The position numbers were made by a program, and so were the translations under genes. The notes below the pieces were generated by a model, which saw only the letters and a list, made by a program, of their open reading frames with translations, made no database searches and was not told the DNA's origin. A stretch of 64,000 bases of DNA, from positions 30,079 through 94,078 of the forward strand of contig CAZMGB010000003.1 of NCBI GenBank assembly GCA_964565775.1, given 5' to 3'. Each line of letters begins with the position of its first letter. The stretch's first letter is position 1. Positions 813-23,309 of the stretch are shown one piece after another. The stretch comes from an uncultured Dehalococcoidia bacterium (lineage in GTDB: Bacteria > Chloroflexota > Dehalococcoidia > DSTF01 > JALHUB01).

Positions 813-920
813 CGGCTTTGAAGACGACCGGATTTCTTCGTCGATGCCGAAGGGGCAATACCAGTCCTCCAGTCTCCTTGCCCGGCAGACCGAGACGCCG
901 AAAGGAGGCACACGTCATCA

Positions 921-1310
921 TGGCTGTTCGGAGGATCGGTTGGCGCGAGATGGAGAAGAGCGACATCCCCTTCGGCAAGCTGCGCGACGCCTTCGTCGTC
1001 TACAACAAGACCACCGGCAAGTCCCCCAACACCATCCGCTGGTACGAGGAGCGCCTGGAGCTGTTCGAGCGGTTCGTTGGGCCCAGGGCCACCCTGGCGG
1101 ACGTGGCGGTACCCAACGTCCGCGCTTACATCGCCCACCTTCAGGACCGGAAGACGAGGTACGAGAACAACCACTTCATCCGCAACAAGGAGGGGGCGCT
1201 ATCGAGCTCCTACATTCAGGGGTTCGCACGTGCCCTCCGGGCCTTCGCCACCTGGCTCCACGAGGACGGCTGCACCGACACCAACGTCCTGAAGCCCCTG
1301 AAGCCGCCGT
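921..1310 (+). pseudogene. Integrase N-terminal SAM-like domain fragment (truncated; no catalytic domain follows)
   Basis: 'TIRWYEERLELFERFVG...VRAYIAHLQDRK...YIQGFARALRAFATWLHEDGC' matches the phage-integrase N-terminal SAM-like domain. Similarity ends at '...LKPLKPP', directly abutting the 3' end of the convergent cytochrome gene. The missing continuation would resemble the start of the 1-660 fragment ('KVKNIKVPQ...'). Confidence 0.6.
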
Positions 1311-1320
1311 GCACGGGGGG

Positions 1321-2961
1321 TCAGCCTTCGTCTTTCGGCTCGAGACTTGTCGGAGTTGCCTCCACGGGGCTCTCCTTTATCTCGTCCGGGGGCAGGTTGT
1401 AGTGACAGAAGTCGCAGCCCATCTCCGGGACCAAGTCGTGGCCGAGCCCCCGCGGCTGCTGGTCCCACACGTCCGGGGAGTGGCACTTCAGGCACCCCGA
1501 CTCGCCGATGGCGCCGGTCAGCCTCTCTCCGGTGTCGGCGCTCACCAGCGTGCCGTGACAGCGGAAGCAGCCGGGCTCCTGCCTCATCGGTCCCAGATGG
1601 CCCTCGTTGTTGGGGTAGGTGCGCCAGGTCGTATTCACGTTTGGGTAGATGACCAGCTTGGAGATGCGCTTGAGCTCGCTGATAGCCTGCTCTATTGACT
1701 CTTGCCGCGTCTCCGAGATTTCGGGGTAGTTCCGCCAGTAGAAGTCCTTGAGCTGGTCGAACCAGCCGTCATCCCACTCCTCGGCGAGCACCCTGGCGTC
1801 GGGGTTCGGATCGCGGGCGGACAGGAGGCGAAGAGACTCCCTCTTCAGGTAGGGAAGGCTCTGATCCAGACGTCCAGCGGTCAGCGCCTCATCGATGAGC
1901 TGCTCAGGAGAGGGGATCTCGTGCCCAGCCCGGTTGTGGCAGTCTATACAGTCCATCAGCCGAGCTTCCCTGAGCTCTGCGTCTGGGTCGAGATCCGGGT
2001 TCGTCCATTCGCGCGTCCCCTCCGGCCCTTCTACGCGCACCCAGCCGATGGTCTGGCGCTTTTCGTCCGCAGCGCGATACCAAAGCCGGGCGGCGGTGTG
2101 CCAGTGCACGCCGCGAGGCTCATCGCTCCCAGTCCCGACGCGGAAGGCAAGCGCGCGTATCCGCATAGTGTTCTGCTCATCCGGGAGGTACTCCCGATAG
2201 ACCCGCAGTCGCAGCCCGTAGGTGCGTTCCCGCCAGTGGCAATCCTCGCACGTCTCACGGGCGGGCCGAAGGTCCTCGATGGGGGCTGGAATGGGGCGAG
2301 GATACGTGTCCAACGTCACGGCGAGCACCTGCCTCAGTCCGGAGAGCTTCGACCGAACGTACCAGCTCGCTCCCGGTCCGATGTGGCAGGTGGTACAGGG
2401 CACGCGAGCGTGGGGGGAGAGCTTGTAGGCCGTGTATTCGGGCTCCATGACCCTGTGACAGACGTCGCCACAGAACCCAGGAGAGTCCATGAATTCCACA
2501 GCCCGATAGCCGCTCGCGCCGAGCACTCCCAAGATGACGGCGGTGCTCAGACCGAAGAGGAAGATACCTCGCACGTGCCGGGGGTTGCCCAGGTCGATCT
2601 GGAGTGCCGGCGGAATCCCCTTGCCCCGGCGGGCCGCTGTCGCCCGGCGTCGGGCTTCCCACGCCATGCCAGCCGGAATCAGGAGCAGCCCGGCCACCAG
2701 CATGGCTGGCAGTACAAGGAAGGCCAGAGACCCGACGTACACATTGGGACGCACCTGGAGCACCTGCAGCCCCAGGACAAAGCACAGCGCTCCAAGGCCC
2801 ACGAGGGCCAGAAGCGCTCCCAGGTAGCTGACGGGGTTTCGCGCCAGGCTGCCGATGCCGTTCCGCCCCTCGACGCGGTGGGGACGCCCCTCCTCGGCCG
2901 GCGGCGGCTGGCCGCGGAGCGATCTACGGGGCCAGTATCGTCTTCGACGCATTCTCGACAA
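1321..2961 (-). CDS. Membrane-anchored heptahaem c-type cytochrome (NapC/NirT/NrfH-like N-terminal anchor)
   Basis: Seven CXXCH motifs (CGDVCH, CTTCH, CEDCH, CIDCH, CFRCH, CLKCH, CDFCH). Two to three N-terminal transmembrane helices. Arg-rich N-terminus. Confidence 0.75.
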   Translation of the reverse strand: MSRMRRRRYWPRRSLRGQPPPAEEGRPHRVEGRNGIGSLARNPVSYLGALLALVGLGALCFVLGLQVLQVRPNVYVGSLAFLVLPAMLVAGLLLIPAGMAWEARRRATAARRGKGIPPALQIDLGNPRHVRGIFLFGLSTAVILGVLGASGYRAVEFMDSPGFCGDVCHRVMEPEYTAYKLSPHARVPCTTCHIGPGASWYVRSKLSGLRQVLAVTLDTYPRPIPAPIEDLRPARETCEDCHWRERTYGLRLRVYREYLPDEQNTMRIRALAFRVGTGSDEPRGVHWHTAARLWYRAADEKRQTIGWVRVEGPEGTREWTNPDLDPDAELREARLMDCIDCHNRAGHEIPSPEQLIDEALTAGRLDQSLPYLKRESLRLLSARDPNPDARVLAEEWDDGWFDQLKDFYWRNYPEISETRQESIEQAISELKRISKLVIYPNVNTTWRTYPNNEGHLGPMRQEPGCFRCHGTLVSADTGERLTGAIGESGCLKCHSPDVWDQQPRGLGHDLVPEMGCDFCHYNLPPDEIKESPVEATPTSLEPKDEG

Positions 2962-3252: not shown

Positions 3253-4155
3253 GTGAGGCGAGCGCTCCTGGCCGCCGGCCTGCTGATGCTCGTGGCGACT
3301 GCAGCGTCGGCGGCTCTGGCGCAAACGCCGCGCTCCCAGGCCCAGGAGACCCCTCGGCTGGCGAGCCTCGAAATCGCCATCTGGCCGGAGTACGACCGTC
3401 CGGAAGTCCTCGTCCTGCTGCGCGGCGAACTGGCCGCTGATGTCCCGCTGCCGACCACGGTGTCCGTCAGCATCCCAGCCTCCTCCGGCGGGCCCTCAGC
3501 GGTGGCTTCCGCAGCCACGGCAGACAGCGGCCTCCTCACCAGAGACTATGAGGTCACCGAGACCGGAGACTCGCTCCTGCTGACGCTCACCACGCCCGAT
3601 CCTCTTTTCCATGTGGAATTCTATGACCTGCTGCCCACTGACACGCCGGACCGGACGTACACATACACGTGGCCCGGAGACCTGGCGACAGATAGTCTGA
3701 CCGTGCAGGTTCAGGAGCCCCTGGGCGCCACCGGCCTTTCGGTGGAGCCGGAACTGGGGCCCGGCACCCTTGAGATCGATGGACTCGTCTACCGCGGCGC
3801 CGATATGGGTGCGTTTGAGGCCGGGCAGACCCTCACGATAACGGTGCGTTACCGCAAGACGGACCCGCGCACGTCGGTCGAGATCCTCGCCGCCGAGGAG
3901 GCAGACTCGGGCGGCGGAGTCCCCTCCTGGCTGCCGCCGGTGAGTATCGCCGTGCTTGCCGTTGTGGCCGTGGCGGCGGTCCTCTACTGGCGCTCCAGGC
4001 GCCAGCCGGTGCCGGCTTCGCAGGAGCCCGCGCGAGGCAGCCGCAGGCCAAGAGGCACGTCCGCCGCGCAGGCCTTCTGCACGCAGTGCGGCCACCGGCT
4101 CGCCGAGAGCGACCGCTTCTGCGCCCGCTGCGGCAACAAGGTACGGGGGGCCTGA
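3253..4155 (+). CDS. Secreted/membrane protein with signal peptide, one TM helix and a C-terminal cytoplasmic zinc ribbon (CTQCGH...CARCGN)
   Basis: Signal-peptide-like 'RRALLAAGLLMLVATAASAALA|QTP' (a GTG start at 3253 is assumed; the ORF track starts at 3187). TM helix 'IAVLAVVAVAAVLYW'. C-terminal CxxC...CxxC. Confidence 0.5.
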   Translation: MRRALLAAGLLMLVATAASAALAQTPRSQAQETPRLASLEIAIWPEYDRPEVLVLLRGELAADVPLPTTVSVSIPASSGGPSAVASAATADSGLLTRDYEVTETGDSLLLTLTTPDPLFHVEFYDLLPTDTPDRTYTYTWPGDLATDSLTVQVQEPLGATGLSVEPELGPGTLEIDGLVYRGADMGAFEAGQTLTITVRYRKTDPRTSVEILAAEEADSGGGVPSWLPPVSIAVLAVVAVAAVLYWRSRRQPVPASQEPARGSRRPRGTSAAQAFCTQCGHRLAESDRFCARCGNKVRGA

Positions 4156-4549
4156 CGCCCGCCCTCTGGGCACGATTCTCCTCCTTGGGATTCTGCCTTC
4201 TTCGAACCGCATCGTCCTCTTTCACTCTGCCGCGCCACGCACAAGCCAGCATCCTGCGATGGGTGCATTTCCCCCTGCGCCGAACGATGCATTCGCCGCC
4301 GACCGGCAGGCGGGGCGTCCCAAGCCGACACGCGTCACCAACTGACCGGCACGCAAATGTATCTTCAGGCCGACCCAGATGCGCCGATCGCAGGATGAAC
4401 ACCCGCCGCCCGCGAAGGGATAGTGTCCACAGTAGAGACTGCCCTCGCCCTCGAAGGAGACAGTCTCGGACGCAGACGAGAATCCTCGAAAGCGATACGG
4501 CACAGAGGTTCCCCGCGACCCGGAGCGGCGTTGAGGCAGGAGTACAGCC

Positions 4550-4918
4550 ATGGCAGCCAAGAGGATCGCCGTCCTGTACAGGAATTCGCTCCTCGCTCAG
4601 GGACTGGAGGCGGCGCTTCGCAAAGCGGACGAGGCGGAAGTGCACGGACTGGATCTGGACGCCCCCGACGCCGTGGACCGTCTGGAGGCCCTGGCGCCTT
4701 TTGCCGTCGTGGTTGACCCGCAGGAACTCCGGGGCGAGTCCTGGGCCGGGCTTCTCGGTCTGTTGCAGAACGGTCCGCTTGTCTGCGTCGTCTCGCTCCG
4801 GCCGGGAGAGGACGCGGTCGACATCCTGCGAAAAGGGCGGGTGGAAGTAGCCAGGGCCCGCGACGTGCTGGGGGCCCTCTTCGGCCTGCGGGAGGGGGAA
4901 GTGGCGGTGGGCGAATAG
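4550..4918 (+). CDS. Stand-alone atypical receiver-like (REC) domain protein
   Basis: About 120 aa with an (alpha/beta)5 receiver-like pattern. 'VVVD' is the putative phospho-acceptor, but the N-terminal acidic pair is replaced ('YRNS'). Paralogue of 22094-22447. Confidence 0.45.
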   Translation: MAAKRIAVLYRNSLLAQGLEAALRKADEAEVHGLDLDAPDAVDRLEALAPFAVVVDPQELRGESWAGLLGLLQNGPLVCVVSLRPGEDAVDILRKGRVEVARARDVLGALFGLREGEVAVGE

Positions 4919-4935
4919 GAGAGGCGAGTGCGCAG

Positions 4936-5178
4936 ATGCCCATGCCCTTTCCCTTCATCCTTTCCTGGTTGATTATCGGGGCCGGCCTGTTTCTAGCGTT
5001 CGAGGCCACCCTCGACCCGCGGCTTCGCGGTTCAGCGGCGGCGGTTCTGGGGCATGCCCTTCCCCTCGGGAGACGGCGCTCCCTGGCGGAGGCTTTCGCC
5101 GCAGGCGTGCTGCTGGCGGTCGGGTTCGTGCTAATGGCGAGCGGCGGCTTCCTGCTGCGAGGCGCCATACCATGGTAG
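4936..5178 (+). CDS. Small membrane protein (2 TM), hypothetical
   Basis: Two hydrophobic helices. Directly precedes the pentahaem cytochrome gene. Confidence 0.35.
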   Translation: MPMPFPFILSWLIIGAGLFLAFEATLDPRLRGSAAAVLGHALPLGRRRSLAEAFAAGVLLAVGFVLMASGGFLLRGAIPW

Positions 5179-5981
5179 ACGTGTCCGGAAGGTGGCTAAG
5201 CCTTCTTCGTGGCCGGGCGATCCCGCCAGTCGTCGGCATCACTGTCGCCGCCGGTGTCCTTCTCGCGGGTGCAGGCCTGCTGGCACTGCTGGCCTTCTGG
5301 TCCGCCTCCCCTGCGGCAGCCCAGGCACCCCCCGAAGTGGCCCAAGATAGCGGAGAGGAAGAGCGAACGGCACAAGATGAGGCGGGAGACTTCAATTCGT
5401 TCTGCTTCATCTGCCACAGCGAGCCCGACTTCGAGACGACGCTGGCCAGCGGCGAGACGCTGCCGCTCTACGTGGATCGAGACGCCTTTGAGGCGTCCAC
5501 CCACGGCAACCTGGAATGCATCGCCTGCCACTCGGACCAGTTCACCATCCCCCACTGGCCACTCGCTGTGGAGGATCGCCGTTCCTTCTCATTGGAGAGG
5601 GTGCGACCCTGCGAGGTCTGTCATGAGGAGGCCACGGAGTCCTACGAGGACAGCATCCACGGGATAACGGTCAGACTGGGACTGAATCGAGCCGCCGCCT
5701 GCGCGGACTGCCACACCAACCACGAGGTGCAGCATCCCGAGGAGTGGTCCAATGAGGAGCGCGCCCAGCGCTGCCAGCAGTGTCACAAGGGTGCCGACGC
5801 CAACTTCGCGAGCGGCTGGCTCGGCCATCGCGAGCCCTCGCCCTCCTGGTTCCCGATAGCCTTCTACGCGGAACGACTCCTCATCATCTTGACCGCCGGC
5901 GCCCTGGGGTTCGGGATCATTCACGTGGAACTGGAACTCATGCGGTGGGCGATCGACAGGTTCTGGAGGAAGAGAAGGTAG
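5172..5981 (+). CDS. Pentahaem c-type cytochrome with N- and C-terminal TM helices (partner of the downstream cytochrome b)
   Basis: Five CXXCH motifs (CFICH, CIACH, CEVCH, CADCH, CQQCH). The C-terminal 'FASGWLGHREPSPSWFPIAFYAERLLIILTAG' is homologous to the C-terminus of the 11196-12434 cytochrome. Confidence 0.8.
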   Translation: MVDVSGRWLSLLRGRAIPPVVGITVAAGVLLAGAGLLALLAFWSASPAAAQAPPEVAQDSGEEERTAQDEAGDFNSFCFICHSEPDFETTLASGETLPLYVDRDAFEASTHGNLECIACHSDQFTIPHWPLAVEDRRSFSLERVRPCEVCHEEATESYEDSIHGITVRLGLNRAAACADCHTNHEVQHPEEWSNEERAQRCQQCHKGADANFASGWLGHREPSPSWFPIAFYAERLLIILTAGALGFGIIHVELELMRWAIDRFWRKRR

Positions 5982-5984
5982 ACG

Positions 5985-6998
5985 ATGTGGCCCCGGTGGC
6001 GGCCAAGACGGGGCAGGCCGGCTCGTAGCGGCTCTGCCAGGACGGCGACGGCAAGGCGCCAGACTGCCGGCGGTGCGCTGAAGCGCACGCCCGCGCGGCG
6101 GAGCGCGGTCGGCGGGGCTCGCGTGGCTACGTCGGCGATGGAGCGGGCCGTACGAGCGCCGGCGCGGCCCGCCGTGCGCGCCGCGCGGCCCAAGGCACCA
6201 CGGCCGGCGCCCGAACCACGGCACATCGTTCGCTTCGACGGCCATCAGCGGCTCCAGCACCTGGTCATGCTCTCCGCGTTCGTTGTCTGCGCCGTCACCG
6301 GCCTGCCTCAGAAGTTCCCCGATGTGGCAGCGAGCCGCTGGTGGGTGGAGTCGCTGGGCGGCATTGACAATGTACGCACGATCCACCACTGGGCCGCGTA
6401 CGTGATGCTGGCAGACTGCGCGTATCACATCTTCTACCTGATGTTCCGCGTCGGCGTACAGGGACGCTTGGATGCCCTCCGCATGATCCCAACGCCGAAA
6501 GACTTCGAGGACGCCGCCAACATGTTCCTCTACTATCTGGGCGCCAGGGAGGACAAACCGAGGTTCGATCGCTTCACATATCTGGAGAAGTTCGATTACT
6601 GGGCAGTGTTCTGGGGGATCGCAATGATCGGCGGCTCCGGGCTGGTACTGTTGTTCCCGGTGACCGCTACCCGCTTCCTGCCCGGGCAATTCCTTCCCAC
6701 GGCACACGCTATCCATAGCGACGAAGCGATGCTGGCTGTCGGCTGGATCGTGATCGCCCATATCTTCTATGTCCACCTATCCCCTCGGTCATTCCCCATC
6801 AACACCTCCATGTTCAGCGGACGGGTGCGCCGCGAGACCTACCGGGAGGAGCACCCCCTCGAGTACGAGCGGCTGGTCGAGAAGCGCCGGCGCGCGGCGC
6901 TAGGTGCGGCAGGCGGCGGCGAGCTCTGCGGTCCGGTCCTGTCAGACGCGGCGCCTCACCCCGAGACCCGCCACGGCACCGGGTCGGCGCTCGGCTGA
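5985..6998 (+). CDS. Dihaem cytochrome b, FdnI/HydC (Ni/Fe-hydrogenase b-type cytochrome) family; putative quinol-oxidising subunit
   Basis: Four TM helices with conserved His residues. 'RFTYLEKFDYWAVFW' and the C-terminal 'FSGRVRRETYREEHPLEY' resemble FdnI 'KYNAGQKMMFW' and 'EGKVSRRWAKKHHPRWY'. Arg-rich N-terminus. The start could be later (for example M at 6136). Confidence 0.8.
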   Translation: MWPRWRPRRGRPARSGSARTATARRQTAGGALKRTPARRSAVGGARVATSAMERAVRAPARPAVRAARPKAPRPAPEPRHIVRFDGHQRLQHLVMLSAFVVCAVTGLPQKFPDVAASRWWVESLGGIDNVRTIHHWAAYVMLADCAYHIFYLMFRVGVQGRLDALRMIPTPKDFEDAANMFLYYLGAREDKPRFDRFTYLEKFDYWAVFWGIAMIGGSGLVLLFPVTATRFLPGQFLPTAHAIHSDEAMLAVGWIVIAHIFYVHLSPRSFPINTSMFSGRVRRETYREEHPLEYERLVEKRRRAALGAAGGGELCGPVLSDAAPHPETRHGTGSALG

Positions 6999-7026
6999 GT
7001 GCGCTGCCGCCGCAAAGGGGACATGG

Positions 7027-7052
7027 AACTGCCCCTCTCCCGAGGGGCAGTT
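7027..7052. terminator. Bidirectional terminator-like hairpin (11-bp perfect stem AACTGCCCCTC/GAGGGGCAGTT, 4-nt loop) between convergent genes
   Basis: Perfect inverted repeat read directly. Located between the + strand cytochrome b stop (6998) and the - strand ORF stop (7099). Confidence 0.4.
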
Positions 7053-7098
7053 GAAGTGATCTCGACGCCCGCGCCGAGTGCGCCTGACGGCCACAAGC

Positions 7099-7383
7099 CT
7101 AGCGAACACCCACCGAACGGACCATCGCCGCCGCAGCCCGCTGCATCCTGCGGGCCGCGAACTGGGCCAGCAACACCGGCACGGCGATGGGCAGGAACAG
7201 CACGTACCCAAGCCCCATGAGGGGCCCGACCACAAGCATGAGAAGTGGGTGGACCCGCACGTGCTCGCCCTCGACCGCGGGCAGAACCCCGCCCTCGTCG
7301 CCGAAGACGACATAGTCACCCGAGTAGAGGTTCCAGTACTTCCCTCCGCGCACCCGCTCTCCAGCGTGATACCGCTTGAACAT
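7099..7383 (-). CDS. Hypothetical small protein with C-terminal TM helix ('MFKRYHAGERVRGGKYWNLYSGDYVVFGDEGG...')
   Basis: ORF with a plausible ATG (MFKRYH). No family recognised. Confidence 0.35.
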   Translation of the reverse strand: MFKRYHAGERVRGGKYWNLYSGDYVVFGDEGGVLPAVEGEHVRVHPLLMLVVGPLMGLGYVLFLPIAVPVLLAQFAARRMQRAAAAMVRSVGVR

Positions 7384-7752
7384 GGCCCGTGATCCTTCTG
7401 CCCTGTTGAGCCTCATTCCCGACTCTAGTCTAGCGCTAGATGCAGCCGTTGCCTATAGGTACTTCGCCCGGGAATGTGAAGGATCAACTACCTGCCCGGA
7501 GGAGGCCGAGAATGGCCGGCAGGCGCCACGGAGGCTCCGTCAAGCCAGCGTCGCCGTGCTCGCGATCAGGGTGGGGAAGGAACTCACAGCCAGAGGCGCG
7601 CCTCAGAGCCTCGCTGGAGGTACCGGGGGAAGGCTTGAGTCAGTTTCGAGGACCTGCGCCCATGGCGCCGACACGATTATCCGCTCGGGGGAAAGAGACA
7701 ATTGCCTCGTAGGCGGAGCGCAAAGCACCCTCCTCGCGCAAGTGGGAGTGTT

Positions 7753-8403
7753 CTACTCTGTCACCTCGACAAGGCCGTGCCGGATGGCGTACTTGACGAG
7801 CTCAGTCCTGTTGTGGATGCCGAGCTTCTCCATCAGGTTGGCTCGGTGGCCCATGACGGTCCTGGCGCTCAGGACGAGGAGCTCAGCGATCTCCTTGTTG
7901 GTGTGTCCCTCCGCGACCAAACGGAGCACCTGCTTCTCTCGGTCAGACAAGGTCTCATACGGGTCCTCAGGGATCTGCTCCTGCGCGAGGTAGCGGTCGA
8001 GCACCGTCCTGGCCACAGTCGGGTAGAGGAAGGACCCGCCCGCGTGCACCGCGCGTATGGCAGACACCAGGTCGGCGGGGTCTCCGTGCTTCAGCATGTA
8101 GCCCGCTGCCCCGGCCTTCAGGATCGGAAAGACGTACTCCCGGTTGTCGTACTGGGTGAGGATGAGGACATTGCACTCCGGGTGCAGCTTTCGGATCTCG
8201 AGGGTGGCCTCCAGGCCTCCCAGGCAGCGCATGGCGATGTCCATGAGAACCACATCCGGCTGCAGTTCCGCTACCTTGTCGATAGCCTCACGGCCGTCCG
8301 CAGCCTCGCCTACCACCTCGATGTCCTCGTAGGCACTGAGGAGGACACGGATGCCCTCCCGGAACATCGTGTGGTCATCGACCAGAAGCACTCTAATAGC
8401 CAT
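7753..8403 (-). CDS. NarL/FixJ-family response regulator (REC + LuxR-type HTH)
   Basis: '[15 protein letters not shown]', 'VVLMDIAM', and a C-terminal 'LSDREKQVLRLVAEGHTNKEIAELLVLSARTV' HTH. Confidence 0.9.
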   Translation of the reverse strand: MAIRVLLVDDHTMFREGIRVLLSAYEDIEVVGEAADGREAIDKVAELQPDVVLMDIAMRCLGGLEATLEIRKLHPECNVLILTQYDNREYVFPILKAGAAGYMLKHGDPADLVSAIRAVHAGGSFLYPTVARTVLDRYLAQEQIPEDPYETLSDREKQVLRLVAEGHTNKEIAELLVLSARTVMGHRANLMEKLGIHNRTELVKYAIRHGLVEVTE

Positions 8404-8404
8404 C

Positions 8405-10309
8405 TTAGGTCTCTCCTTCCGCTTGGATCGGCACCTCAACGCTGATCGTGGTACCGCCGCCTGGCGCCGAATCGATGTTCAGGCTCCCGTCAAGCAGGGC
8501 GATCCGCTCCCGCATGCCCAGAAGCCCAAGACCGCGCGTGCTATCGGCGTTGCGCTCCACGGCCGCCACGTCGAAGCCCTTGCCATCGTCCTCAACCTCG
8601 ACTCGCAGTACGGCGTCCTCAAAGGAGAGGCTGATGGCCGTGTTCTCGGCCTCCGCGTGGCGAGCGACGTTTGTAAGAGCCTCCTGAGTCACTCTGAAGA
8701 CTGCCGTCTCGATCTGGGAAGGCAGGCGCCGCTCCGTGCCCTCCGTCTCCAGGTGGACCCGGGTGCCCACTGGCCCCAGGCGGCTCTCGGCGTACCAGCG
8801 CACTGCTGCCACCAGGCCAAGGTCGTCCAGCACCGACGGCCGGAGGTCGAAGATGAGGCGATGGACGTTGTCGAGAAGGCCGCGAGCCACCGTCTCCAGG
8901 TCGTGTAGCTTGTCCACCAGCCCGGCCTCCGAGGCAGGCACGGCCTGGGAAGCCGTCTTGAGGGAGAGGATGAGGGCGGTGAGGGCCTGGCTGGTCTCAT
9001 CGTGCAACTCACGGGCCATCCGTCGCCGCTCCTCCTCCTGAGCGCCGATGACCTTTCGCAGAAGCTCGCTGCGGAGGGCTTCCTTCTGCTGTAGCTCCTC
9101 GTAGAGGCGCAGGTTCTCCGTGCTTGTCGCCTCCAAACGGTTGCGGGATTCCTCAAGCTCCTTAGTGCGTTCCCGGACCCGCCCCTCCAACTCGCGGTTC
9201 CAGTGGCGGATGCGAGCCAGAGAAGCCCGCAGCCGCAAACGCATGGTATCCAGCGCCTCGCCGAGGCGCCCCACCTCTTCCTCTCCTGAAATCGGGATAG
9301 CCTCACTCAGTCGACCGGCGGCGATCTTCTGAGCGGCGTCGGTGAGCACCCCCACCGGGCGAACCACGCTCTGGGCCAACGCCCAGGCCAGGAGCGGGCC
9401 GACCACCACTATGATCACCCCAATGACGACGAAACGGACGCGGAGGCTCTGCACCGGGCCAAGAATGTCCGTCTTCCCCTCCCAGAGCACCAGGTTCCAG
9501 GGAGCGGTGCGCATGGGGACAAAGGCCATGATCTCCTCTTCCCTCGTACGAGACGCCGGCGGCTCACGGCAGTTGCGGCAACTGCTCACGGTCGCCTCAC
9601 CAGCGTCCACGAGACTGCTGAGCCGGCTCCCCGAGTCCACCCGTGTCAGAAGATCCTCAGGCACGGTGCTGGCGAGGGTGACCCCCTGGGAGTCTATGAT
9701 CTGGATATCGCCGGCAGCCTCTCCGAGGCCGGTGGCCGTGGCCATGCGCTGTAGATCGGAGTTGAGGAGGTCAACGTCGCCGCCAATCACGGCGGCGATG
9801 GAGCCGCTGGCGTCGCGGATGGGAAGTGCCGCCGAGACTACCATGCGGCCGTTCGCCGGGTCCTGGTAGACGTCCGAAACAATGGGCTTGCCGCTGTCCA
9901 GTGCTTCCGTTACGTGAGGCATTGAGGAATACTGGGCGCGCTCCCCTTCAGCCAGCGGCGGCTCCCTCCAGATGAGCACACCGTCGTGGTTCAGCAGATA
10001 GACACCTCCGGTGAACATGGTCGAGAAGTAGGCCTGCTGCAACGCCGCCTTCTCCGGCCCCAGGTCGTCGTCTTCGAGATTCACGTCGGGGAGGAAAGCG
10101 ACTTGTTGTAGCGAGCTAAGGTTCTGCTCGAGGACGTGCTCCGTTTGGGCTGCCAGCGCCTGGGCCAGAGCCAGCCGCCCGTCGAGCTGCCGCTCGGTGC
10201 TGTCCCGCACCGCCAGGTATGCCGACAGGCTGAATGCGGCCAGGGTGACGATCGTGCCCAAGCCAACCAGCGTCAGCATTCGTACTGAGAGACCCTTTCT
10301 GCGCAGCAT
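8405..10309 (-). CDS. Sensor histidine kinase (TM - periplasmic sensor domain with CxxC - TM - HAMP - HisKA_3 - HATPase_c)
   Basis: H-box '[22 protein letters not shown]' (HisKA_3). ATPase motifs '[11 protein letters not shown]'. Two TM segments flank a ~270-aa extracytoplasmic domain that contains 'CRNC'. Start taken at M18 (the ORF-track start at 10360 overlaps the cyt b gene). Confidence 0.85.
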
Positions 10310-10322
10310 CGCTTCCGCACTC

Positions 10323-11186
10323 TCACTTGAGGCCGCGTCTCCCGCCCGCGCGAGGGCCACGCGCCCGGCGCCAGGGCAGGAAGCGACGCCGCTGCTCCGG
10401 CGAAGGCTCGGCCTTAGCAGGTGCAGGCTTTCTCCTTTTCGCAGCGGATCGGAGCCTCGCCAGCTCCAAAGGGTGCTCCTCTTCCATGCGATGGCGCGTG
10501 ATGCGCCCGGTAAAGATGCTCAAGTCCCCCGGGAACTGGCCCGGGCTCAAGAGGACGCTATAGAGATGCCAGGTGGCGATCACCAGCAGGGCCAGCGTCG
10601 CCTCGCCGCCGTGGGCCTCGCGGGCTGCCGCCACCAGCTCCCCTGGGAAGAGCTCCGTGAACACGGTGGGAAACCACAGGATGAGGCCCGTGGCGATCAT
10701 GATGCTGGTGCCGAAGATGACGCCCCAGTACTCGAACTTCTGCCGATACTCATAGCGGTCGAACCTGGGCCGAGCGGGCGCCAGCCCCAACGAGTACCGA
10801 AGCATGGTCAGGGCGTCGAAGAAGTCCTTGACGCTGGGCACCATAGCGGGGCGGAGGCGCCCCCGCAGCGCGGAGAACCCGATCTCGGCAACGTGATAGA
10901 AGGCCTGCCCGATGAGGATCACCGCGAAGACACGGTGGATGAATCGAGCGTTGTCAATGCCGCCCAGTCGATCGATCGTCCACGTCGCCAGAGGCAAGTC
11001 CGGGTATTTCTGCGGCAGGCCGGTAACTACCAGAACTACGAAGCTGGCGAGCAACACAGCGTGCTGAGCCCGCTGACTGACGTTGAAGCGGATGTACCAG
11101 TCTGGCTCGCGCGGCGCAGCGCGGCGCGCCGCCGGTCGCGCGGCCGACCTCGGCCTCCATCGTTCACCCGTCATCGCCGTCCTCAT
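10323..11186 (-). CDS. Dihaem cytochrome b, FdnI/HydC family (paralogue of 5985-6998)
   Basis: Clearly alignable with 5985-6998 ('[10 protein letters not shown]', '[19 protein letters not shown]', '[17 protein letters not shown]'). Confidence 0.8.
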
Positions 11187-11195
11187 GGCAGCCCC

Positions 11196-12434
11196 CTACC
11201 GGTTCCGGGCCAGACGCCACACGTCGAGGGTGATGTGCAATATCAGTCCGCCAATGACCAACGGGATGACGAGCCGGTAGAACCAGCGCACGGCGAAGAC
11301 CATTGGCGTCCGCGACAGGGTGGGTTCATAGTGCGAAAGCCAGGCCGAGGGGAAGTTGGGCCCGGCATCCGGATGGCAGCGCTGGCAGGTAGAAAGCAGA
11401 TTCGCCTTCATAACGGGTGACTGCGAACTCTTCACGCTCACGATGTCATGCACGCCGTGGCAGTCGGTGCAGACGGGCGTGTCCGGCCACACCCGGCTCG
11501 ACTGGCGCTTGTAGAAAGCAAAGGTCTTGCCATGGAAGTCGTCCAGGTAGGTCTTGAGGACGTTGGTGGAGATGCCGTACTTCGACATGCGCTCCTCGTC
11601 ACTGTGGCACTGAGCACAGATGTCCACTGAGCCGAGACGGAAGGCGGGCCTCTCCGGGTTCTCAATCTCATGGACTCCGTGGCAGTCAGTGCACACGGGG
11701 ACGTCCGGGTTGTCTTTGCCCAGAAGAAGGCCGCCGTGGACGCTCTTGGCATATTCGTCGTAGATGGCGCCGTGACAGCTAGCGCACCTCTCCGCTATGC
11801 GCCTTCGGGGCTCGTCCGGCGAGGTGATATCGTGGGACCCGTGGCAGTCGGCGCAGGTCGGAGCCTCCTTTCGTCCCGCCACCAGCACAGCGTAGTGGAC
11901 GCTGTCCAGAGTCTTGGCGTAGTTCTCGAAATGGCAACGGCCGCACACCTGGTAGTAGCCCAGGACATAGTCACGGTGGTTGGCTACCTCGAGCGGCGGG
12001 TGAGGGTAGTGGGTCTGCGCCGGGTGACAGGCGTCGCAGCTCACGCGGCCACCGTGGACCGATTCCTCGAAGGCCTGAATGTCCACGTCGAGGGGAAGCA
12101 CTTCGCCGCTGGCAAATGTGATGCTGAAGCTCCGGTCGCTGTGGCAATCTAGGCACGCGGGCGCGACCTGGGGCTCTCCTCCCCCCTCGTCTGCAGGCGC
12201 TCGGTTCTGAGCAGGCCCGGCGCGAAGGGCTGCGTCGGGCGCGGGCGAGCTGGCAGAGAGCAGTTGCGTCGGACCCTCCGCCTCCGCCGACCCCGAACCC
12301 AGCCACCAGGCTAACCCCCAGCCGAGCATGGCGCAGGCCAGTCCTGCTGCCAGGCCCACCACCCATCGAAGCCACGGTACCGCTCGCGCCGAGGGGTACT
12401 GGCGCCGCGCTCGCATCGTACTACTACCGTTCAC
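11196..12434 (-). CDS. Nonahaem c-type cytochrome with N-terminal anchor and C-terminal TM helix (paralogous, expanded version of 5172-5981)
   Basis: Nine CXXCH motifs. The C-terminal 'FPSAWLSHYEPTLSRTPMVFAVRWFYRLVIPLVIGG' is homologous to the 5172 protein. It sits upstream of cyt b, HK and RR on the same strand with short gaps or overlaps. Confidence 0.8.
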   Translation of the reverse strand: MNGSSTMRARRQYPSARAVPWLRWVVGLAAGLACAMLGWGLAWWLGSGSAEAEGPTQLLSASSPAPDAALRAGPAQNRAPADEGGGEPQVAPACLDCHSDRSFSITFASGEVLPLDVDIQAFEESVHGGRVSCDACHPAQTHYPHPPLEVANHRDYVLGYYQVCGRCHFENYAKTLDSVHYAVLVAGRKEAPTCADCHGSHDITSPDEPRRRIAERCASCHGAIYDEYAKSVHGGLLLGKDNPDVPVCTDCHGVHEIENPERPAFRLGSVDICAQCHSDEERMSKYGISTNVLKTYLDDFHGKTFAFYKRQSSRVWPDTPVCTDCHGVHDIVSVKSSQSPVMKANLLSTCQRCHPDAGPNFPSAWLSHYEPTLSRTPMVFAVRWFYRLVIPLVIGGLILHITLDVWRLARNR

Positions 12435-12698
12435 TTCATTGGCATGCTATCGCGCTCGGGCAGGCGTGGCTATCACCCGGTAGAGCTATTGTGGCTACTC
12501 CCTTTCACATCGCGATGTAGGCCGTTTGGCCCGTCCCCAAAGCTCGCGGAGACGGCAGACACTTCGCCGGCGGCGCCTCAGGTGCACCAGACTCTGCATC
12601 CTTCAGGTGGCCAAATGCATCTGTCGGGGAATAGGCACCGCTGGAGCGTTCCCACTACGATCGATGTCGACGGCAGCCTAGAAATGAAAGGGGTGCAT
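12435..12698. promoter_or_regulatory. Divergent intergenic/promoter region between the cytochrome operon (- strand) and the TPR gene (+ strand)
   Basis: 264-nt non-coding gap between divergent gene starts. A Shine-Dalgarno 'AAAGGGG' lies 7 nt before the ATG at 12699. No promoter consensus could be verified by eye. Confidence 0.3.
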
Positions 12699-13628
12699 AT
12701 GGCGCGAAGCCGCCTCACAGCAATTCTCGAAAGATGGCTGAGCCGTGGCATTCCGCTGGCAGCAGGGCTTGCGATAGTGCTGGGCCTGGCTGCGGCTATC
12801 GTCCTCGTCCAGGACCAGTTCTTCTCCTCTTCCCCCTCCGACTTGGAACGCAACGAGCAGGAGCTACGAGAGGCCATTCTCAAGAGTCCCGACGACCCTG
12901 ACCTTCGCGTGTCGCTGGCCAACGTGTACCTGCAAGAGCAAAAGTACGACGAGGCCATAGCCCAGTACAGCGGCGTGCTGGAGGTCGATGAGAATCGGCA
13001 AGACGCCCTGATGGGCCTGGGTGTGGCGTATCGGGAGACGGGCGACAGCGAGCAGGCCGTCACGGCGTTCACCAAGTTCGTCGAGTTGAACAAGGACAGC
13101 CCGTATGCCGACGTCGACCGCCGGCTGGAGGCCGTTCACTTCTACCTGGGCGAGATCTATTTGGAGCGCAATGAGCCGGACAAGGCGGTGGAGGAGCTGG
13201 AGGCGGCCCTGGCCATTGAGCCTGCCGATGCTGACGCCCTCTACCTCCTGGGCAACGGTCTTCGCGCTCAAGAGGACTACGAAGGGGCGATCGACGCTTA
13301 CGGCCTGGCTACGAGCTTCGTGCCCGACTTCAAGGAAGCGTACGAAGGCATGGCCGCGGCCGCCGATAAGCAGGGCGACTCGCTGACGGCCACCTACGCC
13401 CGCGCCATGGCGCGTCTCTCCTCCGGTGACGTGGACACCGCTGTGCAAGAGCTGGAGGAGGTCGTCGAACAGTCGCCCGACATTGCCGGCGCTTACTTCG
13501 GCCTCGGCTACGGGTACGAGCAACTGGGCCAGACAGACAAAGCCGTAGCCGCGTACCAGAAGTCAGTGGACACCGATCCCCGCCAATACGCGGCCCAAAG
13601 CGCCCTCGCGCGCCTAGGCGCCGAGTAG
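12699..13628 (+). CDS. TPR-repeat protein with N-terminal membrane anchor
   Basis: N-terminal TM 'IPLAAGLAIVLGLAAAIVLV' followed by about seven TPR-like repeats (recurring A..Y...L pattern). The ORF track starts at 12444 but lacks an SD; 12699 is preferred. Confidence 0.7.
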   Translation: MARSRLTAILERWLSRGIPLAAGLAIVLGLAAAIVLVQDQFFSSSPSDLERNEQELREAILKSPDDPDLRVSLANVYLQEQKYDEAIAQYSGVLEVDENRQDALMGLGVAYRETGDSEQAVTAFTKFVELNKDSPYADVDRRLEAVHFYLGEIYLERNEPDKAVEELEAALAIEPADADALYLLGNGLRAQEDYEGAIDAYGLATSFVPDFKEAYEGMAAAADKQGDSLTATYARAMARLSSGDVDTAVQELEEVVEQSPDIAGAYFGLGYGYEQLGQTDKAVAAYQKSVDTDPRQYAAQSALARLGAE

Positions 13629-13636
13629 AAGATCCC

Positions 13637-14686
13637 ATGGCTACCGCCAAGCGCTGGAAGCGCATCGACAGCACCGCCTGGCCCAGCAGACGTGGTCTGC
13701 GGCGTCGCAAGAGGGAACGACGCGGCCTCCTCCTAAGAGGCCTGCTCCTTCTCGTCATCCTCATCTTCGGCGGCTGGGCTGCCTGGTACCTGCTGGGGCA
13801 AGTCGGCGAGAAGATCCAGGTGCTGGGTATCACCGCTGGCGCTGAGGGGCCCAGCTACCGGTCGTCAATACCGGATGTCGGACGGCCACTGGCCGTTGCC
13901 ACCAGCCCCGATGGGCGCCTCGTCTACGCAGGCGAGAGCGGCGGCCGCTACGCAGTCCGCATCTTTGACAGGCAGGGCACGGAGGTGGGGAACATCGGCG
14001 CGCCCGATTCGGCTCGGGGCTGGGTTGCCGTGGACATAGCTGTGGCGAGAACCGGCGAGGTGTACGTGGTAGACGGCGTGGGTGGCGGCATCTACATCTT
14101 CTCCCCGGAGGGCGAGTTCCTACGCACCCTGCCGCCGCCAGAAGGCGTAGAGATGTGGGCACCTTCAGCCCTGGCCTTCGATGACACGGGCAACCTGTAC
14201 GTGACCGAGCGGTTCGAGCTCGCTTCGGAGAGCCGACACCGCGTGCTGGTCTTTGGCCCGGATGGCGAGCTGCTCCGGCAGTTTGGTGAGAAAGGCACTG
14301 GCCCTGGCAAGCTCAACTACCCCAGCGGCATCGCTGTAGACGAGCAAGGCCGGGTGTACGTCACCAACATGACGGGTGGCGTGGATGTGTTCACGTCAGA
14401 GGGCCAGTACATCACCCGCTTCGGAGTGGCGCAAGGGGAAGAAGGAGTAGGAGTTGCCCGCGGGCTCGCCCTGGACCAGGAGGGGCGGCTCTACGTGGTG
14501 GACGTCACGGGCCAGCAAGTGAAAGTGTACGACACCACCAGCGATGAGTTTCCGGCCCTCTACTCATTCGGCTCGTTCGGCCTGGAGGGGGGTGAGTTCC
14601 GCTTCCCGGCAGGCGTCGCAGTGGACGCCAGCGGTCGTATCTACGTGGCCGACAGGGAGAACTACCGGGTACAGATATGGTCCTAG
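13637..14686 (+). CDS. NHL-repeat beta-propeller protein, membrane-anchored
   Basis: N-terminal TM, then six repeats of the 'P.G.AVD..G.(V/L)YV.D..N.R.(V/I)...' NHL pattern. Confidence 0.75.
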   Translation: MATAKRWKRIDSTAWPSRRGLRRRKRERRGLLLRGLLLLVILIFGGWAAWYLLGQVGEKIQVLGITAGAEGPSYRSSIPDVGRPLAVATSPDGRLVYAGESGGRYAVRIFDRQGTEVGNIGAPDSARGWVAVDIAVARTGEVYVVDGVGGGIYIFSPEGEFLRTLPPPEGVEMWAPSALAFDDTGNLYVTERFELASESRHRVLVFGPDGELLRQFGEKGTGPGKLNYPSGIAVDEQGRVYVTNMTGGVDVFTSEGQYITRFGVAQGEEGVGVARGLALDQEGRLYVVDVTGQQVKVYDTTSDEFPALYSFGSFGLEGGEFRFPAGVAVDASGRIYVADRENYRVQIWS

Positions 14687-14799: not shown

Positions 14800-16002
14800 A
14801 TGAGAGTAAGCAAGAAAGCAGGGAAATGGTGTGTTGTTCTCGGCCTGGCGATCGGGCTGGTGTCCGCTGCGGCGTTTGGGGCCGTACCCACGGCCTCGGC
14901 TAACGGTGGCCCCCATGGGGGCTACCTCCCCGACACAGACGCGTGTGCCGGGTGTCACAGGGCACATACCGCCGCCGCCGACTTGCTCTTGAAGGAGGGG
15001 ACCACTTCGGACCTCTGCTTCTCGTGTCACGACACCTCGATGGCGACCACCGACGTTCGGGACGGCGTCATCTACGGTACTACTACCCTTCTCTCCGGTG
15101 GCGGCTTCGCCTACGCCCCCGATCCGAACTGGAATGCGGGCACCAACTCCTGGGACTGGAGCACTTCCAACACCGGAGTCGCCACCCACGGCGTCGGCGC
15201 CAGCGGAACTGCTTGGGGCGGGGCCAGTTCAGGCACGGGAGTCACCGGTGTCCTGGAGTGCACGAGTTGCCACAATCCGCATGGGAGCACCAACTGGCGC
15301 ATCCTGCGGGACAACAACAACGGCTACCCTTACGACCCGGCGAAGCACCGCTGGATCCCGGACAACACGGAGCTACTGGACTGGGTTGGCGAGCAGGTTG
15401 TGGCCGTGCCCGATGACACGGGCGCGAAGAACTACACCCGCCAGGACATCGGACCCTACACCGGGCTCGTCACCTTCGGGGCCGGCGGTGAACCGGCTAC
15501 CACGCTGGGCATGAGCGCGTTCTGCGCCACCTGCCACAAGCAGTACCTGACGAAGAGCGGATCCTACGAGTACCCGTCCACCGACGCGGATCACTACGTG
15601 TACCCGGGCACTCAGGATGCCAACGACGGCAACGGCGACGTGGCAAGGTACCGGCACGCGATGCTGCACAACCACGGCTCCCCGGCGAGCTACAGCCCGC
15701 TGCGCAGGGGCGCGGTCGGCACCATCGCCACCGGAGAGGGCGGTGGCGCGCCCACCACCTGTACCGACGGCTTGGACAATGAAAGCGACGGGAAGATCGA
15801 CCTCGCTGACAGTGACTGTGTCGTCGACTACGGCGCTACACCGACGTACACAGCCATGACGTGCCTGACGTGCCACTTTGCGCACGGCAGTGCTGCCGCG
15901 GCCTCAGGGTACGCTGCAAGCGTGGACCCCACGAACGACAACGCCCTCCTCTACTACGACAACCGTGGCGTGTGCAGGGCCTGCCACCAGAAGGACAAAT
16001 AG
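14800..16002 (+). CDS. Secreted hexahaem c-type cytochrome with Asp-rich Cys-bounded loop
   Basis: Strong SD 'AAAGGAGGTG' 7 nt upstream. Signal peptide. Six CXXCH motifs (CAGCH, CFSCH, CTSCH, CATCH, CLTCH, CRACH). 'CTDGLDNESDGKIDLADSDC' is a Ca-binding-like loop. Confidence 0.85.
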   Translation: MRVSKKAGKWCVVLGLAIGLVSAAAFGAVPTASANGGPHGGYLPDTDACAGCHRAHTAAADLLLKEGTTSDLCFSCHDTSMATTDVRDGVIYGTTTLLSGGGFAYAPDPNWNAGTNSWDWSTSNTGVATHGVGASGTAWGGASSGTGVTGVLECTSCHNPHGSTNWRILRDNNNGYPYDPAKHRWIPDNTELLDWVGEQVVAVPDDTGAKNYTRQDIGPYTGLVTFGAGGEPATTLGMSAFCATCHKQYLTKSGSYEYPSTDADHYVYPGTQDANDGNGDVARYRHAMLHNHGSPASYSPLRRGAVGTIATGEGGGAPTTCTDGLDNESDGKIDLADSDCVVDYGATPTYTAMTCLTCHFAHGSAAAASGYAASVDPTNDNALLYYDNRGVCRACHQKDK

Positions 16003-22640: not shown

Positions 22641-23309
22641 TCAGGTTTGACCGGGAGGGGAAAGGGTGGCGAGACCGGTGCGCACAGCATAGGCCGCAGC
22701 CTGAGCCCGGTTCTGCATCTGAAGCTTCTCCAGGATGTTGTGGAGGTGACGCTTGACTGTGCTCTCAGCGATGCTCAGGGAGAGGCCGATCTCCCGGTTG
22801 CTGCACCCTTCCACTACTAGCTGCAAGACTTCCTTCTCGCGTTCGGTGATGCCGCCCTGCTGAGCCGCCCCTCCCGACCGAGACAGGCGGGCGAATTCTT
22901 GTAGCACCCGCGTTGCCATGTAAGGGGTGAGAGCCGCCTCCCCGCTGAGAACGCCCCGCAGCTTCTCGAAGAGACGCGAGGCCTTCAGGTTCTTGAGGAG
23001 GTAGCCATCAGCCCCGGCCTTTATCGCCTCGAACAGGTCGTCATCAGTCTCAGAGACCGTCAGGATGATGATCCTTGTCTCCGGAAGCGCCTCCTTGATG
23101 CGGCGGGTGGCCTCCAGGCCATTCATGCGCGGCATGTTGATGTCCATAAGGATGAGGTCAGGGCGGTAGGACATGGCGAGGTCCACAGCCTGCTGGCCAT
23201 CGCCGGCTTCGGCCACGACCCGCACGTCATCCTGGGCGGCGAGAAGCTGCGCGACGCCCTCGCGGAACAACACCTGGTCGTCAGCCAGAATCACTCTCGC
23301 TGCTGGCAT
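22641..23309 (-). CDS. NarL/FixJ-family response regulator
   Basis: 'RVILADDQVLFREG', 'LILMDINMP', LuxR HTH 'ITEREKEVLQLVVEGCSNREIG'. Confidence 0.9.
   Translation of the reverse strand: MPAARVILADDQVLFREGVAQLLAAQDDVRVVAEAGDGQQAVDLAMSYRPDLILMDINMPRMNGLEATRRIKEALPETRIIILTVSETDDDLFEAIKAGADGYLLKNLKASRLFEKLRGVLSGEAALTPYMATRVLQEFARLSRSGGAAQQGGITEREKEVLQLVVEGCSNREIGLSLSIAESTVKRHLHNILEKLQMQNRAQAAAYAVRTGLATLSPPGQT

Follow-up and report, generated by a model that had tools for sequence, protein, structure and literature searches.

The sequence analysed here, referred to below as the window, is a stretch of 64,000 nucleotides (nt) from an uncultured Dehalococcoidia bacterium of the Chloroflexota (GenBank assembly GCA_964565775.1, contig CAZMGB010000003.1, positions 30,079 to 94,078). 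Two gene pairs in this window, each encoding a multihaem cytochrome c and a cytochrome b of the FdnI/HydC type, lie in opposite orientation around a sensor histidine kinase (HK) and a response regulator (RR), and the present analysis concerns these two modules and their association with the two-component system. An initial annotation, made from the letters alone, had placed four cytochrome open reading frames (ORFs) here, c1 and b1 in module 1 and b2 and c2 in module 2; all four were found at the same coordinates in the ORF list, and counts of five CXXCH motifs in c1 and nine in c2 were confirmed. The features are as follows, with lengths in amino acids (aa).

5172-5981, plus strand: c1, pentahaem cytochrome c (269 aa; five CXXCH; Cytochrome_C7, Paired_CXXCH_1)
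5985-6998, plus strand: b1, dihaem cytochrome b of the FdnI/HydC type (337-aa ORF; Ni_hydr_CYTB; conserved core from about 6213)
7753-8403, minus strand: RR of the NarL/FixJ type (216 aa; Response_reg and GerE)
8405-10309, minus strand: HK (634 aa; transmembrane (TM) segment, dCache_1, TM segment, HAMP, HisKA_3, HATPase_c)
9566-9580, minus strand: CRNCR, a degenerate CXXCH motif at HK residues 244-248 (from the translation and an alignment of kinase homologues)
10323-11186, minus strand: b2, dihaem cytochrome b with a predicted FdnI fold (287 aa; four TM helices; Ni_hydr_CYTB)
11196-12434, minus strand: c2, nonahaem cytochrome c (412-aa ORF; Cytochrom_c3_2, Cytochrome_C7, Paired_CXXCH_1)
12441-12529, minus strand: conserved non-coding block 5' of c2, candidate promoter/operator, including GAAAGGGAGTAGCCACAATAGC at 12485-12506

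On the minus strand, the TAG of c2 is followed after 9 nt by the ATG of b2, the TGA of b2 after 13 nt by the ATG of the kinase (10309), and the TAA of the kinase after 1 nt by the ATG of the regulator (8403); the gap between c1 and b1 is 3 nt. Module 2 is thus contiguous with a HisKA_3 kinase and a NarL regulator as had been annotated, whereas the gap between b2 and the kinase measures 13 nt and not 14. The start of b1 is ambiguous, either 5985 or an ATG at 6138. The NCBI gene call for b1 (243 aa) begins at Met95 of the ORF and is probably too short, because it would drop the conserved RF...H segment that carries the haem-ligand His of TM1. Possible starts of c2 lie at 12434, 12416 or 12329.

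The cytochrome subunits and the age of the two modules

Homologous loci (numbered with the prefix L) were collected by using a b2 alignment to search a single genome for each species, and the best 80 of 518 loci were kept. Both b subunits matched Pfam Ni_hydr_CYTB (PF01292), with 52.8 bits for b1 and 60.7 bits for b2 at a cut-off of 30.1. The b2 sequence aligned with Escherichia coli FdnI (PDB 1KQF, chain C) at approximately 18% identity (E=8e-8), and its residues H42, H84, H192 and H207, which align with the FdnI haem ligands H18, H57, H155 and H169, were invariant among 59 homologues; from these aligned ligands, haem binding by the four histidines is predicted. TM helices were predicted at residues 36-54, 86-104, 154-172 and 196-214, and FdnI (1kqf_C) was the only significant PDB match of the AlphaFold2 model of b2 (E=1e-7, TM-score 0.80, root-mean-square deviation 3.7 Å; predicted local distance difference test (pLDDT) score 86.3). 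The 'KFDYW' and 'HPLE' motifs that had been pointed out in the b subunits proved to fall on family columns that vary little or not at all (K150 F151 E152 Y153 W154; E237 H238 .. E241), reading KF[DE]YW and EEHPLE, respectively. Besides the four FdnI-type ligands, His238 of b2 (about 10473-10475 on the minus strand) is invariant in the b family and His98 (about 10893-10895) nearly so (at least 90%). His98 lies in TM2, 14 residues past the ligand His84, and a quinone site or an extra ligand is conceivable at this position.

Homologues of these proteins carry the public names 'formate dehydrogenase subunit gamma' (Joint Genome Institute, JGI) and 'hypothetical protein'. The JGI name invites the reading that the b proteins anchor to the membrane a formate dehydrogenase or NiFe hydrogenase whose genes lie elsewhere, and that the cytochromes upstream are unrelated to them. 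Models for the formate dehydrogenase gamma subunit and FdnI are indeed the best NCBIfam matches (TIGR01583, NF007924, NF007558), but their scores of 35-43 bits are far below the equivalog cut-offs of 115-341. At every locus with 5' sequence, moreover, the gene directly 5' of b encodes, on the same strand, a multihaem cytochrome c related to c1 or c2 and ends within about 150 nt of b, and the C-terminal helix of c2 is as well conserved as b itself. No gene for FdnG/H or a hydrogenase subunit was present beside b in the gene calls of L001, L002, L004 and L087, and the genes examined at 1-22 kb included none for an Fe-S, molybdopterin or NiFe subunit. The anchor reading was rejected on the low NCBIfam scores and the contradicting synteny, and we regard it as very improbable. 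The 120 best b homologues are 219-300 aa in length and are therefore considered unfused. Both public names mislead metabolic reconstruction, and the former is contradicted by the gene context.

TM segments were predicted at residues 23-41 and 227-245 of c1 (an N-terminal signal or anchor and a C-terminal helix), and c2 likewise has an N-terminal hydrophobic segment and a C-terminal TM helix. The c2-type partners nearly always have 9 or 11 haems, and their tail, NFPxAWLSHYEPS...IPF..GGL...LWR..NR, hardly differs between Chloroflexota and Acidobacteriota, which would be expected of a helix in close contact with b; we infer that c and b form a complex. By analogy with CbcA of Geobacter (discussed below), a conserved His of the C-terminal helix of c was considered as a fifth haem ligand and was rejected as a general feature, because the tail His is absent in L008, L010, L012, L018 and L070, among others.

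The two modules proved to be paralogous in both subunits and beyond the CXXCH motifs, as the initial annotation had claimed: pairwise alignment gave 42% identity over 255 aa for b1 and b2 (E=6e-64) and 35% over the first 211 aa for c1 and c2 (E=4e-31). The C-terminal part of c1, including its TM helix, aligned with the last four haems and the tail of c2 (28%, E=6e-16), which bears out the noted conservation of this TM region, and c1 corresponds to c2 without one internal four-haem (tetrahaem) unit. At the DNA level, only short remnants are shared between the modules, of which the best is a 34-nt stretch (79%) at the codons for LGGIDN, and the term 'duplication' must therefore denote ancient paralogy here. 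In a neighbour-joining tree of 87 b sequences, the kinase-adjacent b2-type proteins formed a single clade, and b1 of the window fell outside it, together with the second modules of L002, L006, L013 and L017. A second, more divergent c-b pair is present in 21 of the 80 loci, either in tandem upstream (c1-b1-c2-b2-...-HK-RR, as in L006, L008, L013/L087, L061 and L081) or inverted downstream as in the window (L020, L033, L035, L062, L073).

With b1 outside the b2 clade and tandem forms among the relatives, an inverted duplication as an event was not upheld; judged from the tree and the alignments, the modules are old paralogues kept together and not a recent inverted copy. The homologous gene pairs mirror each other across the two-component system, a placement that could also suggest that module 1 is a recent inverted segmental duplication of module 2, or an assembly artefact, and that the copy is redundant or decaying. 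Such an origin is at odds with the low protein identities and with a DNA inverted repeat that does not extend beyond 34 nt. The whole arrangement is kept with intact ORFs in L002, a relative at 68% identity, and recurs in an independent assembly (L001), and other lineages carry both module types in tandem. This explanation is already contradicted by the tree and by the conservation of both modules, and is hardly credible.

The conserved cassette and its sensor kinase

The lineages represented among the best 80 loci, according to record titles, are Chloroflexota, Acidobacteriota, Myxococcota (Anaeromyxobacteraceae), Thermodesulfobacteriota, Binataceae, Methylomirabilota, Dadabacteria, Tectomicrobia, Planctomycetota and unclassified 'delta proteobacteria'. 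At least 4.5 kb of downstream sequence was available for 57 loci, 40 of which, from at least eight phylum-level lineages, have, on the same strand and 3' of the b2-type gene, a homologous dCache-HAMP-HisKA_3 kinase and a NarL regulator. In 27 of these 40, b2 and the kinase are immediate neighbours; in the other 13, an inserted gene pair separates them. When any position was allowed, a kinase with a homologous sensor domain was found in 54 of the 80 loci (approximately 3.5 kb upstream in 11 of them), and the remaining loci are mostly short contigs. Regulators at the same position in other phyla are 52-67% identical to that of the window. Pairwise divergence of b2 was correlated with that of the regulator (r=0.86, Mantel p=0.001, 56 loci), which points to one orthologous cassette and not to repeated recruitment of unrelated regulators. 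The Pfam matches of the kinase (HisKA_3, HATPase_c) and the regulator (Response_reg, GerE) were all above their cut-offs, and no NCBIfam equivalog was reached by either protein, the best being MctS/MctR with 159 and 190 bits at cut-offs of 700 and 300.

Looking for the same gene order in relatives had been proposed as a check. The order c-b-HK-RR was present in L002, in L004 (a Chloroflexi metagenome-assembled genome, 55% identity) and in the 40 of 57 loci described above, which, together with the gaps of 9, 13 and 1 nt, gives strong though indirect support to co-transcription of module 2 with its sensor. In L002 (b2 68% identical) the whole arrangement is kept, including the inverted module 1 with its two small ORFs and the zinc-ribbon, TPR, NHL and cytochrome genes. 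A promoter and terminator consensus scan of 4000-13000 returned no promoter-like site and no terminator-like site on the minus strand, the latter being weak evidence. The three terminator-like sites that it did return are all on the plus strand and are fewer than the shuffle mean, and the scan as a whole is uninformative at 65% G+C.

The gene pair inserted between b2 and the kinase in 13 of the 40 cassettes encodes a BlaR1-like membrane metallopeptidase of approximately 340 aa (Peptidase_M56/M48, HExxH) and a single-TM protein of approximately 186 aa without a Pfam match. Examples are L020 (8832-10461), L035, L040, L041, L042, L048 and L087 (4817-5845). No BlaI-type repressor was seen near the pair, and the window has neither of the inserted genes.

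The kinase of the window has TM segments at residues 11-29 and 293-311, with dCache_1 between them (PF02743, 60.2 bits at a cut-off of 45). An AlphaFold2 model of residues 1-320 (pLDDT 92.9) showed two alpha/beta modules, one distal (84-192) and one proximal (201-278) to the membrane, on a long stalk helix, and a Foldseek search with this model matched only dCache ligand-binding domains (PctA, Mlp37, KinD and Tlp3; E about 1e-12). In an alignment of the cassette kinases, an insertion in the proximal module, SDHxxxLAxLIxxxxxxVGT-C-H-x-C-H, is conserved. It holds a c-type haem-binding motif, with the upstream His as a possible distal ligand. The CXXCH is found at the equivalent position in most cassette kinases, and the whole insertion of approximately 29 residues is missing from two. 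An exhaustive search of 1.84 billion representatives placed 368 members in the sensor family at E<=1e-10, and CXXCH occurs at the equivalent position in 96 of the 150 best representatives.

The kinase of the window itself reads DSG...SS-C-R-N-C-R at this place, so that both histidines, including that of 'SDH', are lost and both cysteines are kept. CXXCR is shared with its three closest relatives (64-79% identical), as CRDCR in L002 and P0121 and as CDDCR in P0122. System I cytochrome c maturation requires the motif histidine, and because the Ccm system of the window is of this type, the kinase probably carries no bound haem. Retention of the cysteines suggests that the CXXC pair keeps a selected non-haem role, possibly thiol-based.

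A c-type haem in a Cache domain has a published counterpart in the sCache_heme family (DUF3365/Tll0287, PF11845; GSU0582, GSU0935), the first Cache domain reported with a covalent cofactor, which is rare in Chloroflexota according to a 2026 preprint and whose haem-c sensors have been reported as nitric oxide (NO) sensors. As in the homologues of the window kinase, the CXXCH of sCache_heme is located in an insertion between Cache strands 3 and 4, after a short helix. The present kinase family differs in that its Cache domain is double (dCache_1, PctA-like) and that it is the membrane-proximal module which carries the motif, and the kinase of the window differs further in having no motif His. 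PF11845 matched neither this kinase nor one CXXCH-bearing homologue, and a profile of its sensor domain did not match the solved sCache_heme proteins 5B82, 3B42 and 3B47. By these comparisons the sensor domain is classed as dCache_1 and not as a member of the published sCache_heme family. Nothing on a haem-c dCache domain was found in the literature searched.

Within the non-coding block 5' of c2, the sequence GAAAGGGAGTAGCCACAATAGC is identical at 22 of 22 bases to the orthologous intergenic region of L002, in which the DNA is otherwise diverged. The block at 12441-12529 may be the promoter/operator of the module 2 operon. Across all loci, the 22-nt sequence was found in the closest relatives only.

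Surroundings of the modules

Module 1 is preceded by two small ORFs, and a third is located 3' of the regulator.

4550-4918, plus strand: 122-aa ORF (ORF list), first gene of the apparent module 1 operon
4936-5178, plus strand: small hydrophobic ORF of 80 aa, overlapping the start of c1 by 7 nt
7099-7416, minus strand: 105-aa ORF (94-aa gene call), 3' of the regulator, with a gene call in L001

The 122-aa ORF, which is also found 5' of the module 1 homologue in L002, had no Pfam match even at E<=0.1. The 80-aa ORF (83 aa in L002) and the 105-aa ORF also had no Pfam match. A 98-aa gene takes the place of the last in L002, and its membership of the operon is uncertain.

Further cytochrome genes adjoin the modules. 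A NapC/NirT/NrfH-like membrane cytochrome of 546 aa is encoded at 1321-2961 (minus strand); it has six CXXCH and one CX3CH, is extended by a large additional domain at its C terminus, and would give the island a second type of quinol dehydrogenase. Upstream of c2, a TPR protein (12444-13628) and an NHL-repeat protein (13637-14686) are followed by two six-haem cytochromes (14800-16002, 400 aa; 16088-17641, 517 aa) and by a protein of 1389 aa (17763-21932, plus strand) with 15 CXXCH and one CX3CH. Inspection of the last by eye revealed runs of FG-GAP/VCBS-like 'GDxNGDGxxDL' repeats and Pro/Thr-rich linkers, and it is a candidate cell-surface cytochrome. The TPR-NHL-cytochrome order is also present in L002, and NHL and cytochrome genes recur in L086.

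Directly adjoining this cytochrome island is a complete System I ccm cluster (28266-36669, plus strand) encoding CcmE, CcmF, CcmH, CcmA, CcmB, CcmC, a thioredoxin-like protein and a DsbD/CcdA-like membrane protein. The window also contains a quinol-type NO reductase (47217-49523, minus strand), in which NorB is fused to a cytochrome c-like domain and which is of note in view of the NO sensing reported for sCache_heme sensors, and genes for acetate activation (acetyl-CoA synthetase, Acs), acetate uptake (a YaaH-family protein) and glycogen metabolism. A HisKA_3-GAF kinase at 23281-25428 (minus strand), whose polytopic N-terminal membrane domain carries one CXXCH (GPCLGCHW) in a loop, may be another haem-c sensor; beside it are a NarL regulator (25612-26271) and another HisKA_3-GAF kinase (26268-28025). 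Tyrosine-recombinase pieces are located at the edge of the window, one with a catalytic Phage_integrase domain (7-660, plus strand) and one with an N-terminal SAM-like domain (818-1402, plus strand) that overlaps the end of the NrfH-like gene; these may be mobile-element remnants bordering the island.

Comparison with known systems and interpretation

The initial annotation had regarded a multihaem cytochrome c as an unusual partner for a cytochrome b of the FdnI/HydC type. This view fails, given the precedents of CbcL and CbcBA in Geobacter. In CbcL, a c domain with nine haems is fused to a HydC/FdnI-like dihaem b of six helices (PMC6295460, PMC9129911), and in CbcBA the dihaem b is a protein of its own beside a c subunit that has seven haems and is anchored by a C-terminal TM helix; the authors of the CbcBA study note many uncharacterized clusters of b with multihaem c in Geobacter genomes (bioRxiv 10.1101/2021.04.15.440034).

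The modules of the window resemble CbcL (GSU0274; homologues MtrH/MtoC) in combining a multihaem c part with a HydC/FdnI-like dihaem b, with nine CXXCH in c2 as in the c part of CbcL. They further share the loop motif P-x-F-[DE]-R-x-x-Y-x-x-K-F-[DE]-[YF]-W, common to b1 and b2, and the adjacency of other multihaem cytochrome genes. The CbcL sequence used for comparison consisted of approximately 150 residues recovered by optical character recognition (OCR) from a supplementary alignment figure. With the fragment covering the TM2-TM3 loop, b1 was 46% identical over 48 aa (E=1e-8), and a profile of the b2 family aligned with an hhalign probability of 95% (E=3e-8, 44 columns). CbcL is a single polypeptide with six TM helices, whereas c and b are separate in the window, with one C-terminal TM helix on c and four on b. 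Module 2, with the nine haems and one anchor helix of c2 and the four helices of b2, looks like an unfused CbcL. CbcL is an inner-membrane quinol oxidoreductase for low-potential extracellular acceptors, and a 2018 survey did not find homologues of it in Chloroflexi (PMC6295460). The cbcL gene has been reported as constitutive and without a dedicated sensor (bioRxiv 10.1101/2021.04.15.440034), unlike module 2.

The likeness to CbcBA (GSU0593-0594) is one of architecture only, with a separate dihaem b and a multihaem c bearing a C-terminal TM anchor. CbcB and CbcA are both needed for function, the adjacent response regulator BccR (GSU0598) induces their expression, and homologous clusters are located near their regulator in several phyla (bioRxiv 10.1101/2021.04.15.440034). 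By gene numbering, the haem-c signal proteins GSU0599 and GSU0591 are beside the cluster. Among the differences, CbcB is thiosulfate-reductase-like and has three conserved histidines, the fourth being supplied by the C-terminal helix of CbcA, whereas b1 and b2 carry all four; for this reason, and with CbcB compared by description, they were not filed under CbcBA. CbcB has no sequence homology to CbcL (bioRxiv 10.1101/2021.04.15.440034). CbcA has seven haems, against nine and five in the window, and its cluster has a divergently transcribed sigma-54 regulator in place of the HisKA_3/NarL pair inside the operon of the window. FdnI, the gamma subunit of E. coli formate dehydrogenase-N, shares the Pfam family, the four TM helices, the four haem ligands and the fold with the b subunits. 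It differs in its partners, the Fe-S protein FdnH and the molybdoenzyme FdnG as opposed to a multihaem cytochrome c, in the low identity given above, and in the extra invariant His98 and longer TM2-TM3 loop of b2.

It is probable that the locus encodes a CbcL-like quinone-pool:cytochrome c oxidoreductase within an extracellular-electron-transfer island, in one operon with a periplasm-sensing and probably autoregulating two-component system. Each module would consist of a four-helix dihaem b of the FdnI fold in the membrane and a multihaem c held at the outer face by its C-terminal TM helix, and would most likely shuttle electrons between the pool of menaquinone and multihaem cytochromes outside the cytoplasm. 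These partner cytochromes would include the large ones encoded a few kb away and would be matured by the Ccm system of the window. The c2-b2 pair would form one operon with the periplasm-facing dCache kinase and the NarL regulator, in a four-gene cassette that is passed on as a whole in many phyla. A redox or ligand cue from outside the cytoplasm is most likely what the two-component system detects, and in response it would adjust the transcription of its own operon; the regulator probably also adjusts module 1 and the neighbouring cytochrome genes. Most relatives would use a sensor with a c-type haem in the membrane-proximal Cache module, and the lineage of the window would read the cue without haem. 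By analogy with ImcH, CbcL and CbcBA, the two modules may serve different potential ranges or conditions. The analysis shows the gene content and paralogy, the FdnI fold and ligand set, the conserved anchor helix, the tight spacing and conserved synteny of the genes, and the haem motif of the homologues, whereas we infer the quinone reactivity, the direction of electron flow, the signal and the targets of the regulator.

Several observations weigh against this interpretation. Every locus found is metagenome-assembled. Approximately 45 OCR-recovered residues underlie the homology to CbcL, and b2 alone gave no BLAST hit with the CbcL fragments. The direction of electron flow is not readable from sequence features (PMC6295460). 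With respect to the sensor, 17 of the 57 loci have no kinase downstream (8 of these 17 have one approximately 3.5 kb upstream on the same strand), and kinases of the same sensor family also occur without a cytochrome b nearby: in L086, a related kinase is beside three cytochromes and an NHL protein with no cytochrome b, and other family members have no cytochromes at all nearby. With respect to the regulon, no second copy of the 22-nt block was found in the window with 3 mismatches allowed, including the regions before module 1 and the cytochrome genes, and a search 5' of 53 c2-type genes (exact 6-nt inverted repeats with 0-10 nt spacing, and 8-mers) found no shared operator above shuffled controls. 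Because the block has no such second copy, the regulator targets are a guess, and as it is confined to the region upstream of c2 in the closest relatives, it provides no evidence for a regulon.

The same complexes could run in the opposite direction, as quinone reductases that, like FdnI in formate dehydrogenase-N, feed electrons into menaquinone, here from extracytoplasmic cytochromes; the donors would be Fe(II), electrodes or a syntrophic partner, and proton-motive force would be built and not spent. FdnI reduces menaquinone at the cytoplasmic side, as seen in the 1KQF structure, and the b subunits keep both the FdnI ligand set and its fold. Homologues of CbcL, MtoC and MtrH have, in addition, been reported from Fe(III) reducers and Fe(II) oxidisers alike (PMC6295460). 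The window has no pointer to a lithotrophic donor pathway, however, and Acs, the YaaH-family protein and the quinol-type NO reductase fit organotrophic respiration, although they are not decisive. Reverse flow is considered possible but doubtful.

As the main alternative, module 2 might serve as the input device of the kinase and not chiefly as a bulk respiratory enzyme, with c2 binding to the proximal Cache module or exchanging electrons with it (through the haem c in most homologues and through the CXXC pair in the window), so that the kinase reports the redox poise of the quinone pool and of the extracellular electron transfer chain, and module 1 performs respiration. It is the b2-type module, and not the variable second module, that is fixed beside the kinase; the gaps resemble those of translational coupling and suggest matched expression; the motif is in the membrane-proximal module, near the membrane that anchors c2; and retention of CXXC in all four His-less close relatives argues for a redox-active or structural role. 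A precedent for such contact is the binding of apo-TorC to the sensor domain of TorS, and the Geobacter haem-c signal proteins mentioned above are, by their numbering, beside bccR and cbcBA. CXXCH is present in 34 of 41 kinases directly 3' of b2 but in only 3 of 11 located approximately 3.5 kb upstream, a contrast that follows phylogeny (Dehalococcoidia-type loci) and is therefore not independent evidence. A sensor would not need as much as nine haems and a dihaem b that is fully conserved and has quinone-side ligands, and members of this sensor family are also found beside multihaem cytochromes in the absence of b, or beside no cytochromes, as noted above. This role of module 2 is unlikely.

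An equally tentative extension is a hard-wired redox sensor, in which quinone-tied c2 would pass electrons to the haem of the dCache kinase (here, to a CXXC thiol/disulfide), and by which the cell would gauge back-pressure in extracellular electron transfer and switch between bc modules. If this were true, the kinase family would be a second, independently evolved class of haem-c Cache domains ('dCache_heme'), comprising several hundred clusters at 50% identity and distinct from the sCache_heme family published in 2026, and the interest of the locus would rise to high.

The enzyme type is already known from Geobacter, and its conserved link to a HisKA_3/NarL sensor appears to be undescribed. 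The new elements are the split CbcL-like form in Chloroflexota, the cross-phylum sensor cassette, and the dCache domain with a haem-c motif together with its His-less variant. Of the steps in extracellular electron transfer, that of the bc-type quinol oxidoreductases is understood least, and the choice among several of them in one cell has so far been explained for one Geobacter operon only. The CXXCH-bearing dCache domains and the natural His-less CXXCR variant offer a ready comparison for what such sensors detect. The cassette provides a concrete, testable pairing of enzyme and sensor, and a portable genomic marker of such respiration in uncultured Chloroflexota, Acidobacteriota and other lineages.

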